UHGV virus genome: UHGV-0117634
DNA length: 64,000 bases
Reading direction: 5' to 3' (one strand)
Source: a virus
Positions 1-43,890 of this stretch are shown here, piece after piece; position 1 is the stretch's first letter, and each line of letters begins with the position of its first letter. The position numbers were made by a program, and so were the translations under genes. Under the pieces are notes generated by a model. The model did no database searches, was not told where the DNA came from, and worked only from the letters and a program-made list of their open reading frames with translations.

Positions 1-234
1 TAATAAAGCTCTTTATCTGGGGCTTAAGATACTACCTTTTAAACCCCATGTAAAGCACTTTATGAAATAATTTTTATAAAATCTTTCATGGTTATTTTGT
101 CGCCATTTGTTAGGGCTATGCAGTCATTGCCCATCACTGACTTGTAAAGGTAGAAAACCTTCCCAATTTTTGGATAACCATCTAAACCCTTGTAATGTAT
201 TACATCGCTTTCTTTAACCATTGTCAAGCCCTTT

Positions 235-441: not shown

Positions 442-696
442 CTTAGATTCTCCAGTTTAGGATTGTTGGGGCTTGCTTACCCCGTTGATGCAAATACTAC
501 AAAACTGGATTCATAGAGTCAACAAAATTTTTAAAAATATTTTTGGCATGTTGTGAATGAAACGCGTGTACGCAACTAACAGAAAACAGAAAACTAGTCA
601 AGAATTATTTTTTAGTTCTCTACAAATTTTTCTCTTGACTTTTGGGAGGAAGGGGAGTAAGAGGGGATGGTGGGGCTGGCTTCCTATAGCTACCTA

Positions 697-3411: not shown

Positions 3412-3433
3412 AAAAAGGCTCCCGAAGGAGCCT
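3412..3433 (-). terminator. rho-independent terminator (minus strand GGCTCC-TTCG-GGAGCC then T-run)
   Basis: Plus strand AAAAAGGCTCCCGAAGGAGCCT; perfect stem, tetraloop, T-run on minus strand; follows 3445..3909. Confidence 0.6.
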
Positions 3434-3444
3434 CTATATTAACC

Positions 3445-5142: not shown

Positions 5143-5206
5143 TTGCACTCCTATTTTGTTAAACATGCAGACAATTATACATCATCCTGCACATTTTTCA
5201 AATAAA

Positions 5207-5229
5207 AAAGGCTGCCGAAGCAGCCCTTT
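5207..5229 (-). terminator. rho-independent terminator after rIIB
   Basis: Plus AAAAAAGGCTGCCGAAGCAGCCCTTT; stem GGCTGC/GCAGCC with CGAA loop, flanking A/T runs. Confidence 0.55.
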
Positions 5230-5242
5230 AGGAATTTACTTA

Positions 5243-6364
5243 TTATACTTCACGTTTACGCTGAGAAATCAGTTCACCAGCAGTTCCTACAACTACATGA
5301 AGTGCTTCTGAACCATCCCACTCTTTGATGACTTCACGGCGACTATTCACAATCGCTGCAACTTCATAACGTGAAGCTCGCATTTTCATATCGTTGTAGT
5401 CAGTTGGTACTGAAACAACATCACGAGGATGAACACGAACTTTCAGGATAGTGTCGCCAGAGAAGCTAGTTACATAGTCCCAAGCCCCAACATGCAGACC
5501 CTGAGAGCATGTTACATGACGGTTATTATCAACCATCCAACGTGGCATCTCAACAATGTTACCCAAATCGTTTGGAACTTTGCAGGTACGAGAGTCAAAC
5601 AGTTTACCACTACGAGTTGTGACTTTCTTCCAACCGATGATATAACCTTCTTCATCGATTTCAACATCAAGGTGTGACACAAAGCCCCAAAGTTGTTCTA
5701 CAGAGTCTTTTGATGGGTTTTCCATCAGTTTTTCGAAGAATGCAATCAGACGGGTAAAGCCTTCATCACCTTTCTTCATCATGTCCAGAATACGGTCTAC
5801 CAGAGTTGAACGCATTTGAACAGCACCGTAGTACAGGTTATCACCTTTAATGGTCACAGCACCCTGAGTAAAGTTCTCAATGGATTTGCGAATATTCATC
5901 AGTTCAAAGGCTTTCTTGTACTCACCTGATACAACAGCCATAACAATTTCAGTGTAGTTAGGGTGAGTTGATTCAACAATCTCTGACTCTGCACCGAAAG
6001 TCATGATAACCGAGTCACCAGTAATCATGTATTCAATCTGACTATTATTCTGCATTGCTTCGTGCAGAGCATTTACAGGTTCTGCTTTGACTGCTTCTTT
6101 AACAGCTTTTGCAACAGGTTTCTGAGTAGCTACCTTTTTAGTTGCTTTAGCTTTCTTAGCACCCTTTGCAATATCCTTCAGAGTCCTCGCAGGTTTTGCT
6201 TTGGTTTTCCCTGTCAGTAAAGTTGCTTCATGACGCTCTACAGCACGACCTACAGAACGAGTTGAAGTATTGTACTTCAGAGCAATTGCAGTTTTGGTAA
6301 GTTTACCTTCTTTAACCAGTGCGTAGATTTCTGCGTCGATTTGTGCTTTAGTCTTAGTAGTCAT
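5243..6364 (-). CDS. rIIB: rIIB-like protein
   Basis: C-terminal region (RSTLVDRILD..., CSQGLHVGAW, VRVHPRDVVSVPTDYNDMKMR) matches T4 RIIB as I recall it; lies immediately downstream of rIIA as in T4. Confidence 0.85.
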   Translation of the reverse strand: MTTKTKAQIDAEIYALVKEGKLTKTAIALKYNTSTRSVGRAVERHEATLLTGKTKAKPARTLKDIAKGAKKAKATKKVATQKPVAKAVKEAVKAEPVNALHEAMQNNSQIEYMITGDSVIMTFGAESEIVESTHPNYTEIVMAVVSGEYKKAFELMNIRKSIENFTQGAVTIKGDNLYYGAVQMRSTLVDRILDMMKKGDEGFTRLIAFFEKLMENPSKDSVEQLWGFVSHLDVEIDEEGYIIGWKKVTTRSGKLFDSRTCKVPNDLGNIVEMPRWMVDNNRHVTCSQGLHVGAWDYVTSFSGDTILKVRVHPRDVVSVPTDYNDMKMRASRYEVAAIVNSRREVIKEWDGSEALHVVVGTAGELISQRKREV

Positions 6365-6407
6365 TTTAATATCTCTCTTTGTTGTTTAAAGTTACTTAGT
6401 GGTTCGT

Positions 6408-6436
6408 ATTCTAAGGGGCTTTTCAGCCCCTGTCAA
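6408..6436 (-). promoter_or_regulatory. sigma70-like promoter for rIIB (TTGACA-N17-TAGAAT) with a GGGGCTGAAAAGCCCC hairpin in the spacer
   Basis: Minus strand TTGACA, 17-nt spacer made almost entirely of a perfect 6-bp-stem hairpin, then TAGAAT ~40 nt upstream of the rIIB ATG. Confidence 0.45.
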
Positions 6437-6443
6437 ACTATTT

Positions 6444-8816
6444 TTATTCCCAACAGTTGGTATCTTCTGGCAGACCTCTAACATCAAACCCTAAGAATCT
6501 ACCAACTTCAACAGGTGACACTTTATTCCAATCCAGATTAGAAAGCAAGAAGTTTTCTTTACGGCGTTTTTCAAAGTAATCTTTGAACTTGCTTTCAAGA
6601 CGCTTCTTAGCATTGTCCAGAATCTTTCTTGGCTTACAAGAGCTTCTCATATTCCTGCGAATGGTGTCAAGAGTACTGTAGATTTCTTTGTAAGCAATTG
6701 GTGCAGCAGTGTATGCCAAGCGACCAAACATTGCTTCTACAGCGTCTTCGTTCCCTTCTAACAGGATTGTTGAGTCAAAGTCTTTGTTATATACATGACC
6801 CCTTGACTTCTTCTTACCAGCAAAGTTGAAGTTACGAGCAACAACATTACAATCTGTGATATCATGCTTATCAGTCATGTACTGATATGTCAAGTAACGA
6901 TGATACTCAATCCAGTGAGTGTTATCAATAAAATCTTTCATCACCTGTGCATTGACTTCTGTCCAATCTTCAGGAATCTTCTTCCAGTTTGCTTTACGGA
7001 AGACATAAACTGTTTGTCCAGTTAATTCTGTCATCAACGTTGCAGCACGTTCTGGTGAGCATGAGAAGATACCACCAAGAACTTCATCACTCTGTGCTTT
7101 GATATACAGTTGTGGTTCTTCAATCTCATCAAAGTTTTCCTTAACTTCCGTATAACGGATTATGCCGGAGTTTGGGCATATAAATGCTTTGTACAGCTTC
7201 ACCACTCCACGTACAATGGTACGTTTCTCATAGTGGTGCTCTTTAGATGACATTGTATGCACACTTAACAGAGTCTTGTCAAGCATATGCAGAGCTACAA
7301 ATTCATCAAATTGCTGCTGACTGCTGAACAAGAAAGCAATACCATTGTAGCGACGGAAGTTGGAATCTTCCTGTTCACGGTCACGGCAAGCTCCACGGAT
7401 AATCTGATTTTTACCAGTCGTCTTTTCAGACCCGTTCTTGTTTCGACGGTCATTGATAAGGAACAAATAGTTGCTCAACTTATCTTTACTCATTGCACCA
7501 AAGATACTAAACATGGCAGCATCTTGTGAATATGTTGCTGAAGTTGCTCGAATACGATTCTCCAGACTGCTGTACTTGTAATATGCTACAGGTTCATACA
7601 GATTACCAATATTAGGAACTGGATTACCGTCTTTGTCAAGCCTTAAGTTACCTGCATCATCTTTTAAGAATGATGGAGAACCATCTGCTTCAGTTAACTG
7701 ACCACGACGAATACCCAACAGCTTTTGTTCAAGCTTTTTCAAGTTCTGACCTTGCCACTCCAGAGAATCTTGGACGTGATTAAAGATTTCACGAGCCTCT
7801 TTCCTCATGGTATCATAAGCCTGAGCAGCATCAATCAGCGTTGGCTTATTAGCAATCTCTTTAACCACATCTTCAACGATTGTCTTAGTGATTTTCTTCA
7901 CGGCTTCAACAATCTTTGTCTTAGTGGTCTCATTCATCTGTAATGCTTCACGAGATGCAGCAATAGCCACTGAACCAATTGGCATGTAGATATTAACAAG
8001 GTCTACAGCACTACGGAAGAACTGAGGCAGAATACTTGTAAACTCTGAACCAAGCAACTCACCCATTTCAACAGGATAAGCAATATTACCCATGATTACG
8101 TTGAAATGGACACTATTACTATTTGAGCGCCAGTTCTCTTTGTACTTCATTGCATCATAGACACCATCTTCACGAGAAATGGAAGTCATTGCTTCAAGAA
8201 TGTCATAGTACTCAACATTACACTCTGGCTTAACTTTAAAGTACGAGTATACATTGCTCGCTTCTTCATGAAACTTGTTAATACGGTTATCAGATACCGC
8301 TACTCGAACAGCTAAACCATTTGGCTCTGTAGTTGGGTTAGTAGTCAACTTAGTGACTTGAGGGATACCATTCTCAAGATATACAGAGTACTTGTTAACA
8401 ACACCATCAACATAGCTTGATACAGTAAATGATTGAGCAATCGCAAACGGTGACTTTGAACCGATACCCATAGCACCGATGTAGTCATTTGAATCGTTCT
8501 TTGTAGATTCTCCATAGGTCATATAAAGCTTCATGACTTTTTCATGAGTCAGACCTGTACCAAAATCACGAACTTCAAAGAAAGGCTCAAAACGAGTTGG
8601 CAAGTGAACCAAGAAAGGCTTATCAACATTACCAGAATCAATGTGAGCATCTACTGCGTTACAAGATAACTCACGAATAACAGCACGTTCTTTGTATGTG
8701 TAAACACCTGAGCTTAGAAGACTGAACATTTCAGGTGTCATCTTAATCTGAGCCTGAGAGGTTTCCAGTGTACTTGAGCTTTTAATTACCGTTGCGTGGT
8801 CATTTACCATGCGCAT
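6444..8816 (-). CDS. rIIA: rIIA-like protein (GHKL/Bergerat-fold ATPase N-terminus)
   Basis: N-terminal YKERAVIRELSCNAVDAH...RDFGTGL...DYIGAMGIGSKSPF aligns with T4 RIIA ATPase-fold motifs from memory; 790 aa. Confidence 0.9.
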   Translation of the reverse strand: MRMVNDHATVIKSSSTLETSQAQIKMTPEMFSLLSSGVYTYKERAVIRELSCNAVDAHIDSGNVDKPFLVHLPTRFEPFFEVRDFGTGLTHEKVMKLYMTYGESTKNDSNDYIGAMGIGSKSPFAIAQSFTVSSYVDGVVNKYSVYLENGIPQVTKLTTNPTTEPNGLAVRVAVSDNRINKFHEEASNVYSYFKVKPECNVEYYDILEAMTSISREDGVYDAMKYKENWRSNSNSVHFNVIMGNIAYPVEMGELLGSEFTSILPQFFRSAVDLVNIYMPIGSVAIAASREALQMNETTKTKIVEAVKKITKTIVEDVVKEIANKPTLIDAAQAYDTMRKEAREIFNHVQDSLEWQGQNLKKLEQKLLGIRRGQLTEADGSPSFLKDDAGNLRLDKDGNPVPNIGNLYEPVAYYKYSSLENRIRATSATYSQDAAMFSIFGAMSKDKLSNYLFLINDRRNKNGSEKTTGKNQIIRGACRDREQEDSNFRRYNGIAFLFSSQQQFDEFVALHMLDKTLLSVHTMSSKEHHYEKRTIVRGVVKLYKAFICPNSGIIRYTEVKENFDEIEEPQLYIKAQSDEVLGGIFSCSPERAATLMTELTGQTVYVFRKANWKKIPEDWTEVNAQVMKDFIDNTHWIEYHRYLTYQYMTDKHDITDCNVVARNFNFAGKKKSRGHVYNKDFDSTILLEGNEDAVEAMFGRLAYTAAPIAYKEIYSTLDTIRRNMRSSCKPRKILDNAKKRLESKFKDYFEKRRKENFLLSNLDWNKVSPVEVGRFLGFDVRGLPEDTNCWE

Positions 8817-8849
8817 AAGAATATCTCCTTAGTTGTCGATGTGGCAAAC

Positions 8850-8877
8850 TATATAATTTTATAGATGCCACTGTCAA
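8850..8877 (-). promoter_or_regulatory. sigma70-like promoter upstream of rIIA (TTGACA-N16-TATATA)
   Basis: Minus strand TTGACAgtggcatctataaaatTATATA about 30 nt upstream of the rIIA ATG. Confidence 0.4.
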
Positions 8878-9058: not shown

Positions 9059-9375
9059 ACATTTTCTCCTACAGTTCTAAATAGAACAAAACTTCTGTCA
9101 TGAACAATACTCGAAGATACTGCAAAACTATTCTCAAGTATATTTTTATTTGGATTGTAGAATCCTTCTTGGAACAAATCAAGTGCCTCTTGATGATTTT
9201 GTGGCAGACCTTTGATGTAAACCTTCAAAGTGACCGTTGTATAAATCTCAGAAGCTAACTCTGACTGTGCTGCTTGAAACAGTTCGTTGATAAACTTGTG
9301 ACCATCTTCAGGACGCTGAATGTTTTCCCAACGTTCTTCAATGATTACATTGACATTCATCTGTTTAATTTTCAT
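9040..9375 (-). CDS. hypothetical protein (111 aa)
   Basis: ORF-track ORF downstream of the NAMPT-family gene. Confidence 0.4.
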   Translation of the reverse strand: MKIKQMNVNVIIEERWENIQRPEDGHKFINELFQAAQSELASEIYTTVTLKVYIKGLPQNHQEALDLFQEGFYNPNKNILENSFAVSSSIVHDRSFVLFRTVGENVCKVIG

Positions 9376-9599
9376 AGTCTGTTAATTCCTTTGCAAGTTT
9401 TACGAAACTCTCTGCGAAGCTTTCTAATCTGACGTTTAGTAGGTTTTGTAGGGAATTTGTAATCATCCACAAAAACCTGCATATCATCTCTGTAGTCTTC
9501 TGCAAACCATAACTGCCAAGATGCTACACAATATCCACCAAAGAATCCAGTACTATCTGTATAAAATAAATCAGTGTTAAATCTCATAACATTCTCCAC
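9372..9599 (-). CDS. hypothetical protein (75 aa)
   Basis: ORF-track ORF; GGAG RBS; overlaps next gene start. Confidence 0.4.
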   Translation of the reverse strand: MENVMRFNTDLFYTDSTGFFGGYCVASWQLWFAEDYRDDMQVFVDDYKFPTKPTKRQIRKLRREFRKTCKGINRL

Positions 9600-9604
9600 A
9601 AATT

Positions 9605-9627
9605 AAAAAGGCTCCCGTAGGAGCCTC
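9605..9627 (-). terminator. rho-independent terminator after NAMPT-family gene
   Basis: Plus AAAAAGGCTCCCGTAGGAGCC; stem GGCTCC/GGAGCC, tetraloop, T-run on minus strand. Confidence 0.6.
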
Positions 9628-9640
9628 TTATCATACTATT

Positions 9641-11458
9641 TTACAGTTGCTTGTCAATAACTTTTCGTACATCACGAAGGTTAACGTAACCATATGGTTG
9701 TGAGTCACAGAAGACAAGCTTCAAAGCACACTGAGGGTTGTCAATGACACCTTCAAACTCTGCAAATCCTAAGCCATCTACAGCTTCCAGCTTATCACCA
9801 TCCCACATAGGAATGACACCACCAAAAGCAGATTTCTTAAGACCACTATCTGTTTTAGGGTCTTTAGCCAGCATGATTTCTTTACCATCCATCTGTGCAA
9901 GAGTTGCTTTAACAGCAAATGCAAAGGTATCGCGAGTCAAGTACTGATAAGTGTATGAACCTACACCAAACACTACGTTAGAACTTGCAAAACCCTTATC
10001 AGCAAGACGTGACAGGATATCATTAGCTCTTTCCAGAGTGATAGAATCACCGTAGATTAATCCAATGTGCTCATCCAGTACTTTGTACCCTTTGGAGTTA
10101 ACAGTGCCACCAAAGATGTTATACAGCGTGTGGATAGCCCCATCAATCTCTGCTGTCAGCATACGCTTCACAGTAAACTGTCCAGTTTTCTGAGCGGTAA
10201 TCAGGTTGATTGTATCAGCAGATTCAAAATCTTCCTTATCAACAACCATCTCATAACCTTCAGAGATTAGCCAAGCAGAGAACCCAAAGCCAATATCAGA
10301 CATTTCACAATTCAAGATTGTGTCATGCAGATGTGTATTGTTCGGTGCAAGCTCTTTCATGTGCTTGTAGAACATTGACTTAGCAGTTTCCCACTCAATG
10401 GCTTTGTAACCAGTAACAATGTGAACAGGGTCTCCAGAGTCTGGACGGATTACCAACTTACCATCACGATTCAGAATCACATTACGTAGCTCTGGTAAAA
10501 TCTGTGTAACAGTTCTCCAGAAGTTGTAAGTATCTGATACAACACTTGCAATACCAGTTGGGTAGACTTCTGTCAGAAGACGTTGGAAAGTTTCTACCTC
10601 ACCACGCCAACGCATTGCATCTAACAAGTTGTCAGACTGTAGCAGATGCCAATCACTTACTTCTTTTGCACAACTATTCCATGAGATGTTTGCACACATC
10701 ACAGAGTGTTCAGTTGCTGGTACAGAGTTCCCGATATCACTTACAGTCATAAACTGACCATATGCACGTTTAGCTGTGTATACAGCAGGGAAGCTGTCAG
10801 TACCTTTAAAACTTGTCAGGTGACCTACTGCGTTAAACGCATCATCTGTGAATCCAGACATACCACGCATTGCAAAGTCATGACACTGCCAAGGAAGATG
10901 GAAGTCGTTATCACAGGTCAAATCTGACCACTTCTTACAAATACGTTTGTAATGTAGTGCAATAGTTGCAATTGTACAAGCTTTCCAGATTTCAGCAGAG
11001 AAAGCATCTTCGAGATAACCAGCTACCCAATGGAAGCCCTCTACAGTGTTTTTGAATATAATCATCGGGACACGCATAGGGACAATTGTACCTTCCTCTA
11101 CAGAGTAGACTTCAACAGGCAGATAACCTAAGTCATGAAGTTCTTCCCAATGTTGGCGACCAATAGCATCTGCACCAAGAACACCATTCATGATTTCCAA
11201 GATTTCGTCAATGGCTTCTTTCTTATCGCGTTCAAAGAACGTTGCATTCCAGTGGTCTACCAGATAGTCTTTTACAAAACGCTGAATACCAAATGCTACA
11301 ACACCATCAATTTCTAATGGAGAGTTAAACCATTTGTCTCCACGAGGTGTTAAGTTCAGCATAAGATACTGAGTAGCATCTGGATACTGGTAGATATGAC
11401 CAGCTTTGTAAGCATCTGCGTTAAGTCCTGCTGGTACTGCATAGATTGATTTAGTCAT
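9641..11458 (-). CDS. nadV: nicotinamide phosphoribosyltransferase-family protein (NAMPT/NadV-like; candidate Namat of an NAD+ reconstitution pathway)
   Basis: Clear NAMPT motifs: DAYKAGHIYQYP, FAMRGMSGF...SFKGTDS, SVPATEHS, VVSDTYNFW, IRPDSGDP, IYGDS, FGVGSY...LTRD. Confidence 0.9.
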   Translation of the reverse strand: MTKSIYAVPAGLNADAYKAGHIYQYPDATQYLMLNLTPRGDKWFNSPLEIDGVVAFGIQRFVKDYLVDHWNATFFERDKKEAIDEILEIMNGVLGADAIGRQHWEELHDLGYLPVEVYSVEEGTIVPMRVPMIIFKNTVEGFHWVAGYLEDAFSAEIWKACTIATIALHYKRICKKWSDLTCDNDFHLPWQCHDFAMRGMSGFTDDAFNAVGHLTSFKGTDSFPAVYTAKRAYGQFMTVSDIGNSVPATEHSVMCANISWNSCAKEVSDWHLLQSDNLLDAMRWRGEVETFQRLLTEVYPTGIASVVSDTYNFWRTVTQILPELRNVILNRDGKLVIRPDSGDPVHIVTGYKAIEWETAKSMFYKHMKELAPNNTHLHDTILNCEMSDIGFGFSAWLISEGYEMVVDKEDFESADTINLITAQKTGQFTVKRMLTAEIDGAIHTLYNIFGGTVNSKGYKVLDEHIGLIYGDSITLERANDILSRLADKGFASSNVVFGVGSYTYQYLTRDTFAFAVKATLAQMDGKEIMLAKDPKTDSGLKKSAFGGVIPMWDGDKLEAVDGLGFAEFEGVIDNPQCALKLVFCDSQPYGYVNLRDVRKVIDKQL

Positions 11459-11478
11459 CTTTTTATCTCTCTCAAAGT

Positions 11479-11494
11479 GGGGCTTTTCAGCCCC
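11479..11494 (-). promoter_or_regulatory. second copy of GGGGCTTTTCAGCCCC hairpin (intergenic, between PRPP-synthetase-family and NAMPT-family genes)
   Basis: Identical 16-mer to the one in the rIIB promoter spacer; here no good -35/-10 flank it. Confidence 0.4.
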
Positions 11495-11502
11495 TAAAGT
11501 TT

Positions 11503-12402
11503 TTATTCAATATTTACTACAGTCACTTGTGAGAAGTGTGAAAGTCCACGCCATTTAGCACTTCCTAATGAATCTGTAGTGTAGATATGGTCAATACCGT
11601 TGTCAAGAAGATTTTCAACACCTTTAGAGAAAATCCCATGAGTGACATATAGTTCTACATGTTCTGCACCAGCTTCACGAAGATACTTTGCAGCCTCAAT
11701 GAAGGTACGACCACCGTCACAGATATCATCCAGAATCATGACAGTCTTACCTGTTAAGTCTACATCATCAAGGATTCGCATACCAGTTATTTCACCAGTT
11801 TTTAGGTTGCGTACCTTAGCCATTGTGATATATGGCTTTTCAACATCCTTAGCAGCTTCTTCTGTCTTCTTAGCTGCACCTGCATCTGGAGCCACTAAGT
11901 AATCAATTCGTGGGTCACTTGCAAAGTGTGATGCAACGGCTTTTTGTGGAACATTATAGAAGCACTTGAACAAATTTTCTGCTACGTTGCTGTGAACATC
12001 CAGAGCACATACAGAATCAAATTCCATAGCATTTACCAGATTGGCAAACACTTTCAATGCTGCTGCATCTCCTTTAAACATGTGTCGGTCATATCTTGCA
12101 TTTGGTAAGAAACCAAATAACACTGACTTCATTGTTGTTTGTTGAGGTATAAGGTTGTCAATTGCTTCTTTAGCCAAAGCTAATGCAAATAAGGTGTCTT
12201 TGTCATAACCTTGTACCGTGAAGATTACGTTTTCAATTTTTCCAGCAGCATGTTTAGCAAAATCTACTAAGTCTTCTGAAAAGTTACCACCAATTTCCCC
12301 TGAAGGGAACTGAATAATGTTGAAGGTCTCTTGGTGTGAACCTTTTGAATTTGAATTAAGCAGAACTTGAATAGTAGTTTCCATAGTATTTCTCTCAGTC
12401 AA
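11503..12402 (-). CDS. ribose-phosphate pyrophosphokinase (PRPP synthetase)-family protein (candidate Adps)
   Basis: PRTase-type binding loop VMILDDICDGGRTF and overall Prs-like layout; immediately upstream of the NAMPT-family gene. Confidence 0.8.
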   Translation of the reverse strand: MTERNTMETTIQVLLNSNSKGSHQETFNIIQFPSGEIGGNFSEDLVDFAKHAAGKIENVIFTVQGYDKDTLFALALAKEAIDNLIPQQTTMKSVLFGFLPNARYDRHMFKGDAAALKVFANLVNAMEFDSVCALDVHSNVAENLFKCFYNVPQKAVASHFASDPRIDYLVAPDAGAAKKTEEAAKDVEKPYITMAKVRNLKTGEITGMRILDDVDLTGKTVMILDDICDGGRTFIEAAKYLREAGAEHVELYVTHGIFSKGVENLLDNGIDHIYTTDSLGSAKWRGLSHFSQVTVVNIE

Positions 12403-16267: not shown

Positions 16268-16336
16268 ATTTTAATACTCTGCTCCAATAAAAAGGTGATG
16301 CAAGCCTATCAAGACCTACACCACCTTGTCAACTAC

Positions 16337-31388: not shown

Positions 31389-31648
31389 AATTGCCTCTGT
31401 TAAGTATCTATAAAGATTTTAATCTCTTATCTTTATGTATGTTATACATATAACTTTAAAGCTTTTTTAAAAGCTATTAAAAATCTTTTGAGACTTTTAA
31501 AGAAACTGTATAGTTAATCTATAAAGGGAGTCTATTAAGATAAAACCCACTTCGAAAAGACTAACACCTTGTCAAGCAGTTTGTCAACTTGCTTTTTGCA
31601 GAAAATTGCTGTAGGGTATTATCCAGAATGATTTGAGAGGGAGTAAAA
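31389..31648. promoter_or_regulatory. divergent AT-rich control region with palindromes (AGCTTTTTTAAAAGCT; TATGTATgttATACATA) and TTGTCAA direct repeats
   Basis: 260-bp gene-free gap between oppositely oriented blocks; a 16-bp perfect palindrome at ~31466..31481; candidate operators and promoters, exact -35/-10 not resolved. Confidence 0.45.
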
Positions 31649-34348: not shown

Positions 34349-34409
34349 TAGTGTTGACAAGGTGCTCATGGAAGAGTACCTTATACTATATATTATATAG
34401 GAGACTTGT

Positions 34410-37205: not shown

Positions 37206-37409
37206 ATGAAGAAGAACATCTGTAGAACAGACTATGGTGAAGTGGTCGATGATGACGGAGTAGTTATTTACAGAGTTTGGGCTAATGATTTTTCAACCCT
37301 TGTAGAGTCTTTAGATAACTACATCAACGGGACTCGTGAAAACGTCAGAGCAACTAATCTTGATTCGTTAATAGACACTTCTCGAAAGCGGAGAAAGAAA
37401 GATGAATGA
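37206..37409 (+). CDS. hypothetical protein (67 aa)
   Basis: ORF-track ORF. Confidence 0.4.
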   Translation: MKKNICRTDYGEVVDDDGVVIYRVWANDFSTLVESLDNYINGTRENVRATNLDSLIDTSRKRRKKDE

Positions 37410-43846: not shown

Positions 43847-43890
43847 TTATAAATCCTCTTTCTAGGGGCTGTGTAGCCCCTTATAAATAA

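Follow-up and report, generated by a model that had tools for sequence, protein, structure and literature searches.

What does a perfect hairpin do inside the spacer of a promoter, and why should the same hairpin stand a second time in the same genome where no promoter surrounds it? Both questions are raised by the junction of the rIIA and rIIB genes in the 64,000-nucleotide stretch of viral DNA (UHGV-0117634) that we analysed as a whole and refer to as the window. By megablast, the window comes from a Felix O1-like phage of the genus Mooglevirus (Ounavirinae), and it shares 97% identity with Citrobacter phage HP1 over the 8 kb tested.

Results

A putative promoter and a hairpin in the rIIA-rIIB gap

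The genes around rIIA and rIIB lie on the minus strand of the window, and the gap of 79 nt between the two holds the element on the same strand. Direct reading of the minus strand from 6436 to 6408 gave TTGACA-GGGGCTGAAAAGCCCCT-TAGAAT, the very letters that an earlier, sequence-only reading had placed before rIIB as TTGACA, a 17-nt spacer and TAGAAT. The gene identities given in that reading held as well: rIIB is 99.7% identical to rIIb of Citrobacter phage HP1, and the names of the NAMPT gene and of the PRPP-synthetase gene are taken from the annotation of relatives. In a consensus scan, TTGACA-17-TAGAAT matched at 11 of 12 positions, with a spacer of 17 nt. On the 5' side of TTGACA lies the A/T-rich stretch TAAAAATAGT, which holds the stop codon of rIIA, and on the 3' side the -10 box is separated by 28 nt from the ribosome-binding stretch and by 43 nt from the ATG of rIIB. 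The features of the junction, in the direction of transcription, are as follows.

6444..6446, minus strand: rIIA stop codon TAA, 13 nt 5' of the hairpin, in A-rich surroundings (direct reading)
6431..6436, minus strand: -35 hexamer TTGACA of the putative rIIB promoter (direct reading, consensus scan, relatives)
6414..6431, minus strand: stem-loop AGGGGCU-GAAA-AGCCCCU of 7 bp, which fills the 17-nt spacer (6430-6414), with the 16-mer core at 6415-6430 (direct reading, RNA folding)
6408..6413, minus strand: -10 hexamer TAGAAT (direct reading, consensus scan, relatives)
6399..6402, minus strand: predicted rIIB transcription start, 6-8 nt past the -10 box and 3' of the hairpin (from standard sigma-70 geometry)
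6362..6379, minus strand: rIIB ribosome-binding stretch AAGAGAGA (6379-6372) and ATG (6364-6362) (direct reading; kept in relatives)

The 16-mer of the spacer consists of a 6-bp stem without mismatches and a GAAA loop, and the stem is extended to 7 bp by the final A of the -35 box and the T preceding the -10 box. Its predicted free energy as RNA is -11.3 to -13.5 kcal/mol. The RNA of the whole rIIA-rIIB intergenic region folded with a z-score of -3.6 (0 of 200 shuffles were equally stable), and its centroid structure was the spacer hairpin alone. Reading and scan together show a predicted sigma-70-type promoter and a stable hairpin sharing the same 29 bp, and according to the folding model a 7-bp, G+C-rich hairpin with a GAAA loop would form in any RNA that reads through the junction.

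Constant boxes and stem, drifting loop

We compared 38 rIIA-rIIB loci of Mooglevirus, Suspvirus and Felixounavirus, which amount to 34 distinct sequences. The -35 box is TTGACA in 32 of the 34 distinct sequences and TTGACG or TTGACT in the other 2, and the -10 box is TAGAAT in 30, TAAAAT in 3 and TAGGAT in 1 of them; the changes are confined to positions that sigma-70 tolerates (TTGAC[A/G/T] and TA[G/A][A/G]AT). The spacer is 17 nt long in the Mooglevirus/Suspvirus type and 18 nt long in the Felix O1 type. The arms GGGGC/GCCCC are unchanged, and the 12 stem positions invariant, in 31/34 distinct sequences, the exceptions being GGGGT..GCCCC, which is U.G-paired in the sense RNA, and GGGGC..ACCCC, which occurs in 2 sequences. 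The six bases between the arms vary (TGAAAA, TGCAAA, TTTGAA, TTCAAA, TTTTAA, TTAAAA), and so does the sequence that flanks the hexamers. Selection thus acts on the promoter boxes and on the stem, and not on the loop. The claim that the element is a promoter is thus borne out on the sequence level, with the hexamers standing as conserved islands in the 34 distinct sequences.

The gene content of the junction does not vary among the 38 loci, and the junction is vertically inherited. No compensatory double change was seen in the stem at the rIIB site of these relatives. Since the stem is near-invariant and invariant pairs are uninformative, we set formal covariation counting aside and relied instead on the way in which distant relatives replace the hairpin.

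A second copy and a family of intergenic hairpins

The window contains exactly two copies of the 16-mer, at 6430..6415 (site 1) and at 11494..11479 (site 2), both of them on the minus strand, whereas 0 occurrences were expected from 100 shuffles. That an identical 16-mer stands at about 11479..11494 before the NAMPT gene without good hexamers had been claimed in the sequence-only reading, and both points were confirmed: we sought flanking -35 and -10 hexamers at 11494..11479 by direct reading and by the consensus scan, and found none. The more general motif GGGGY-N6-RCCCC occurs 4 times in the window, against 0.07 expected, and 7 times in HP1, and all of these copies (4/4 and 7/7) are intergenic. 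Site 2 belongs to this family as a hairpin without a promoter; the members in the window beyond site 1 are the following.

11479..11494, minus strand: second, identical hairpin GGGGCUGAAAAGCCCC (site 2), in the gap from the PRPP-synthetase stop to the NAMPT start, both early metabolic genes; no promoter (direct reading, 16-mer count, folding)
43864..43881 (core 43880..43865), minus strand: third member AGGGGCU-ACAC-AGCCCCU (site 3), between two late tail-protein genes; no promoter (motif search, folding, HP1 annotation)
468..483, minus strand: fourth member GGGGU-AAGCAA-GCCCC, in a 5' leader, about 10 nt past the -10 box of TTGACT-17-TAGTAT (522..494) (motif search)

The member at 483..468 contains a U.G pair that is possible only in the sense RNA, and paralogous copies of it lie in the leaders of other small early genes of HP1. 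As a separate observation, the 507 nt from 442 to 948 are non-coding and hold a 41-nt repeat in about 2.8 copies (696-818, unit ACCTGCACAAATTGAAAATGAATTTTCCCTTTGGAGTCC...), the C-rich tract CCAGCCCCACCATCCCCTCTTACTCCCCTTCCTCCC and a terminator-like hairpin; this could be a regulatory or replication-related region.

At site 2, the stem is kept in Mooglevirus, Suspvirus and Felixounavirus with loops that include TGAAAA, TGAGAA, TTTTAA, TTGAAA, TTAAAA and TGCATA, among others. The loops of sites 1 and 2 differ in most phages, as GAAA and GAGA do in HP1. Concerted evolution of the two copies was considered and rejected, as the loops of the two sites differ in HP1, mistaenkt, SUSP2, Tribble, REP6 and pEC-M719. 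A single loop base separates the two copies of HP1, so that it is not exact identity that is selected, and the identity of the two window copies reflects a common stem consensus and the same GNRA loop rather than a functional link between the sites. The exact 16-mer has more than 120 matches in IMG/VR, mostly in unrelated viral contigs, which is about as many as would be expected for a generic 16-mer hairpin in a very large collection and tells nothing about function. The loop variants GAAA, GAGA and GCAA, found at site 1 in Mooglevirus/Suspvirus and at site 2 in HP1, are all GNRA tetraloops on the sense strand, and this is a small pointer to a function in RNA.

In 6 of 32 loci, an HNH gene takes the place of the site-2 hairpin, and the hairpin is also absent from Yersinia phage P778; judging from this replacement and this absence, the hairpin at site 2 is dispensable. 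The gene in question, a free-standing HNH endonuclease gene between PRPP-synthetase and NAMPT in L123, L128, L131, L141, L152 and L156, occupies a position equivalent to 11459-11502 of the window and ends right at the NAMPT ribosome-binding site. The promoter-like match nearest to site 2, TTGACA-17-TACACT at 11606..11578 (minus strand), lies within the PRPP-synthetase gene, 84 nt 5' of the second hairpin. Across 25 relatives, the synonymous codon positions in both of its hexamers are unchanged, while adjacent synonymous sites vary. The match may serve as an internal promoter from which NAMPT is transcribed separately, with the second hairpin in the leader.

The hairpin is distinct from canonical terminators and RNase III sites

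The G+C-rich hairpin right behind the rIIA gene is a feature that the element shares with intrinsic terminators. A U-tract directly 3' of the stem was found neither at site 1 (tail UUAGAAUA) nor at site 2 (ACUUUGAG) nor at site 3 (UAGAAAGA). As the tail of the site 1 hairpin, UUAGAAU in the RNA, is not a U-tract, the element was not classed as a canonical intrinsic terminator. Moreover, none of the three sites (6414, 11479, 43864) was called in a sense-strand terminator scan of the window, the annotation of phage Tribble has no terminator at any of the three hairpins, and the start of the terminator table of Felix O1 shows none after rIIA. The canonical terminators of the window (9629..9606, 5229..5206, 3435..3414) resemble the element in being G+C-rich tetraloop hairpins just past a stop codon on the sense strand, but they have stems of 9-10 bp, UUCG or UACG loops and an A-tract/U-tract pair, whereas the element has 7 bp and UUAGAAU. 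A terminator acting on the antisense strand, as the T-rich plus-strand tail at site 2 might suggest, was also rejected: there are no plus-strand genes here, the T-run of site 1 is non-adjacent, and the family favours sense RNA.

With its 6-7 bp, the stem falls short of the approximately 20 bp of double-stranded RNA of an RNase III site. Rfam returned no family, either for the whole window at gathering thresholds or for the locus at E <= 5.

Distant relatives keep a hairpin at the junction but replace its sequence

All three distant relatives that we compared carry a hairpin at the rIIA-rIIB junction, each of a different sequence, and two of the three keep a TTGACA promoter. In Yersinia phage P778, TAA-ATAGTA-TTGACA is followed by a 15-bp stem (dG about -24 kcal/mol) with four G.U pairs, which encloses the -10 box TTAAAT in its loop and 3' arm. 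In contig L159, whose rIIB has 58% identity, TTGACA-17-TCTAAT is accompanied by a 9-bp hairpin over the -10 box. Pectobacterium phage Arno18, with a rIIA of 29% identity, has an 8-bp hairpin past the rIIA stop and no clear hexamers. The hairpins of L159 and Arno18 are each only modestly significant, and it is the three relatives jointly that carry the argument. As the structure is held in place while its sequence is replaced, and as G.U pairs are used, the comparison points to a junction hairpin that acts in the sense-strand RNA and not as a DNA site.

Most promoter-like sequences between genes overlap hairpins

In a survey of the intergenic regions of the window, most sigma-70-like promoters were found to overlap a hairpin. 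At 5201, 26790 and 41437, as at the rIIA promoter (8877), the -10 box lies between the two arms of the hairpin, and the hairpin begins directly past the -10 box at 9657 and 14216. An example of each arrangement is given below.

8841..8877, minus strand: putative rIIA promoter TTGACA-18-TATAGT within the hairpin GUGGCA...UGCCAC, z = -4.2 (consensus scan, folding)
9606..9657, minus strand: composite of TTGACA-16-TATGAT and, at once after it, a UACG-loop terminator hairpin, z = -4.4 (consensus scan, folding)

The complete genome of HP1 was examined in the same respect, with promoter matches counted from at least 10 of 12 positions and the hairpin threshold set at z <= -2. A segment that folds at this threshold accompanied 9/15 of the intergenic promoter matches versus 0/35 of the coding ones (Mann-Whitney p = 5e-5). 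In HP1, the region of small early ORFs (82.2-85.7 kb) has at least six repeated cassettes in which a TTTACA-17-TAGTAT promoter lies inside a long GGGGUUUAU...AUAAGCCCC hairpin. The rIIB element is one of a genome-wide family of promoter/hairpin composites, a point that the sequence-only reading had missed. Additionally, in 17 of the 19 intergenic regions of the window the sense RNA folds more stably than the antisense RNA; the difference is -5.2 kcal/mol on average (p = 1.7e-4, Wilcoxon test). The rIIA-rIIB intergenic region itself folds slightly better as antisense RNA; the element is a perfect Watson-Crick palindrome and, therefore, provides no information on the strand.

Several further observations were made during the survey. 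The hairpin of the TTTACA-17-TAGTAT cassettes is about 20 bp long and interrupted (dG about -25 kcal/mol), and the repeated cassette TAA..AAAGTnCTTTACATGGGGTTTAT..TAGTATAAGCCCCAGATAAAGAGCTTT spans 82276-85656 of the HP1 record L163, with one copy at the edge of the window (62..1, minus strand). A small ORF at 9372-9599 (minus strand), directly 3' of the 9657..9606 composite, is present here and in HP1 and Sf17, and absent from ESh19 and others. The motif TTGACAAGGTG has three intergenic occurrences, at 16332 (minus), 31575 (minus) and 34354 (plus). At two of them, the last A of TTGACA opens a long hairpin, of 16 bp at 16332 and of 9 bp at 34354, and there is no good -10 box 16-18 nt away. The divergent region 31389-31648 contains two TTGACA boxes, 12 nt apart.

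Discussion

Promoter-early stem-loops (PeSLs) are known from the T4-like phages RB49, phi1, PST and nt-1 (Arbiol et al. 2010, PMC2839356; Comeau et al. 2014, PMC4122927). We consider it rather probable that the element before rIIB is a composite of the PeSL type, that is, a sigma-70 promoter combined with an RNA stem-loop that attenuates read-through or protects the 3' end of the rIIA mRNA. Host RNA polymerase would use TTGACA-17-TAGAAT, and rIIB transcripts would start at about 6400, 3' of the palindrome, so that RNAs made from the rIIB promoter would lack the hairpin. RNA from the rIIA promoter (8877), the likely source of read-through, would in turn pass the rIIA stop and carry the hairpin as a whole. 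There, the hairpin might weakly terminate or attenuate transcription, might block 3' exonucleases and thereby define and stabilise the end of the rIIA message, or might do both; as the U-tract is lacking, these are the roles that appear most likely. RB49 provides a precedent: there, a stem-loop in the spacer with a -10 box behind it is still able to reduce downstream expression strongly. The placement of the hairpin inside the spacer would save space in the 79-nt gap and would uncouple the expression of rIIB from upstream traffic. As no transcript 5' or 3' ends of Ounavirinae phages were found in the literature searched, the use of the promoter and the effect of the hairpin are what we infer.

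One of the two suggestions made in the sequence-only reading, that the hairpin is a shared RNA processing or attenuation signal, fits this evidence and matches the published PeSLs (PMC2839356). Several observations count against a PeSL-type composite, among them the missing U-tract, the lack of compensatory changes in the stem and the dispensability of the hairpin at site 2. In addition, the GGGGC..ACCCC change in two relatives weakens the stem on the sense strand, and invariant half-sites around a variable centre of fixed length would also suit a palindrome bound by a protein.

Might the stem be read for its sequence rather than for its structure? That GGGGC(U)/(A)GCCCC is a sequence-specific RNA signal for a protein or a nuclease, with a role in processing, antitermination or translational control, seems unlikely to us. 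One stem sequence does recur at four window sites and seven HP1 sites and across three genera, with variable loops and with no compensatory stem changes seen, and the stems of the canonical terminators in this genome are different ones, followed by U-tracts. However, distant relatives carry unrelated stems in the same position and site 2 of L142 and L143 is shifted to another register (ATGGG..CCCAT), both of which speak for structure as such, and purifying selection alone would be expected to freeze a G-C stem of 5-6 bp. Neither a candidate binding protein nor an Rfam match was identified. It is quite unlikely, too, that the GGGGC(U)...(A)GCCCC stem is a specific site for a phage or host factor, for example a regulator that binds RNA, a nuclease or a recombinase; a recombinase has been an earlier speculation for PeSLs. 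If this were true, the phage could time its early gene expression through these sites, which would address the ordering of transcription in Felix O1-like phages, where no polymerase-modifying proteins are known.

PeSLs of RB49 and phi1 recombine with each other and form mini-circles (PMC2839356), and it has been proposed for them that short repeats mediate the insertion, deletion and shuffling of gene modules. That recombination is likewise the main role of the GGGG..CCCC cassettes considered here, with any effect on transcription secondary, we regard as very unlikely, even though site 2 is polymorphic in that the HNH endonuclease gene replaces its hairpin, an extra small ORF comes and goes beside the 9657..9606 composite, and the cassettes of the small early ORF region of HP1 are repeated. 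Against it stand the constant gene content and vertical inheritance of the rIIA-rIIB junction, the shortness of a 16-bp repeat as a substrate for homologous recombination, and the independent evolution of the loops at the two sites, with no sign of gene conversion; moreover, homing endonuclease genes insert by a mechanism of their own. A role in recombination is plausible for the family, but it is not evident at the stable rIIA-rIIB junction. No more credible, and contradicted by the pattern of conservation, is a promoter alone, with the palindrome as a tolerated spacer or a relic of a former terminator that is functionless now: a sigma-70 spacer is largely free in sequence and the hairpin has no U-tract, but the 12 stem positions are invariant in 31/34 distinct sequences while four loop positions and the flanks are free, and four divergent lineages have a hairpin at the junction, including where a promoter is not evident.

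The other suggestion of the sequence-only reading, an operator, is disfavoured by the evidence. A dimeric repressor that binds GGGGC-N6-GCCCC and shuts the rIIB promoter and similar sites in an early-to-late switch is highly improbable. Conserved half-sites around a variable centre of fixed length fit the site of a dimer, but an RNA stem would be expected to show them just as well. Of the four copies in the window, two are placed as operators might be (6430..6415 in the spacer, and 483..468 at about +3 to +20), and the Felix O1 genome paper states the timing of transcription to be unexplained (PMC3185647); the other two copies (11494..11479 and 43881..43864), however, have no promoter, the unrelated hairpins in the same place at other promoters would call for many different repressors, and G.U pairs, on which members of the family and orthologous hairpins depend, would be mismatched in DNA. 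One candidate repressor was checked, a 67-aa ORF at 37206-37409 (plus strand) that is annotated in HP1 as 'XRE family transcriptional regulator' (HP1_62); it had no Pfam match at E <= 0.01 and was, therefore, rejected as the operator-binding protein.

In the Felix O1 genome paper, only five candidate promoters are given, none of them at rIIB, and the passage of transcription past many terminators is described as unexplained (PMC3185647). Our results suggest a simple answer for the Felix O1 group, namely that host-type promoters are packed in or against hairpins, and that each such unit would end the upstream traffic and restart its own. This helps to annotate the transcription units of Felix O1-like phages, a group that finds wide use in typing, biocontrol and therapy.

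Comparison with known systems

Promoters that overlap hairpins have parallels outside the PeSLs. For phage T7, Dunn and Studier reportedly described in 1983 overlapping pairs of promoters and RNase III sites, such as phi3.8/R3.8 and phi6.5/R6.5. As in the element, the promoter lies in or beside an RNA hairpin, and read-through RNA has the full structure, while RNA started at the promoter has not. Unlike the element, however, the T7 pairs consist of T7 RNA polymerase promoters and long RNase III substrates, for which a stem of 7 bp is too short. Horwitz and Loeb are said to have reported in 1988 a synthetic promoter with a palindrome between its -35 and -10 boxes that was regulated by cruciform extrusion. 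The inverted repeat in the promoter spacer is common to both, but the palindrome of the synthetic promoter is longer and its extrusion driven by supercoiling, whereas a G+C-rich arm of 6-7 bp with a 4-nt centre would be unlikely to extrude. The hairpin of the element is also found away from promoters.

The closest likeness is to the PeSLs themselves, which are made up of a sigma-70 consensus promoter, an upstream A/T-rich stretch with the preceding stop codon, a stem-loop, and a Shine-Dalgarno sequence with the next start codon, the promoter spacer being one of the two commonest positions of the stem-loop (PMC2839356). The parts in the window follow in the same order: a stop codon in an A/T-rich stretch, the -35 box, a GGGG..CCCC stem-loop in the 17-nt spacer, the -10 box, the Shine-Dalgarno sequence and the start codon. 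Direct reading of intergenic regions of RB49 gave TAAAAAGTTGTTGACA-GGGGGTCACCGATCCCC-TATAAT, TTGACA-GGGGATCGGTGATCCCC-TATAAT and similar others, and TAAAAATAGTTTGACA-GGGGCTGAAAAGCCCCT-TAGAAT of the window has the same architecture, with TTGACA followed by GGGG..CCCC and then by the -10 box. The element thus has the sigma-70 boxes at 17+/-1 nt, the stable poly-G...poly-C stem-loop over the promoter, and the A/T-rich stop and Shine-Dalgarno/start codon of a PeSL. Like PeSLs, such composites are many per genome, as seen in HP1 from the 9 of 15 intergenic promoter matches and the at least six cassettes before small early ORFs, and in both the window and HP1 the position of the stem-loop relative to the promoter varies, as it does in PeSLs.

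The systems also differ. In RB49 and phi1, promoter and terminator activity has been shown with lacZ: one stem-loop of the spacer type lowered downstream lacZ about as much as rrnB T1 did, and a complete PeSL drove strong lacZ expression (PMC2839356). For the element, the corresponding activities are predicted from the sequence. Its stem of 6-7 bp is shorter than the stems of RB49 PeSLs, and its phage belongs to the Ounavirinae, with a genome of about 89 kb, whereas the PeSL phages belong to the Straboviridae. In the literature searched, PeSLs are mentioned for T4-like phages and in passing for a few others, and no paper on Felix O1 relatives was found. The element exists and is conserved, and its design, known before from T4-like phages, is here that of a Felix O1-like phage; it reveals no new mechanism, and it shows that the PeSL design is not confined to the relatives of T4. 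While the PeSLs of RB49 mostly flank ORFans in hyperplastic regions, the rIIB copy precedes a conserved gene and is stable across three genera.
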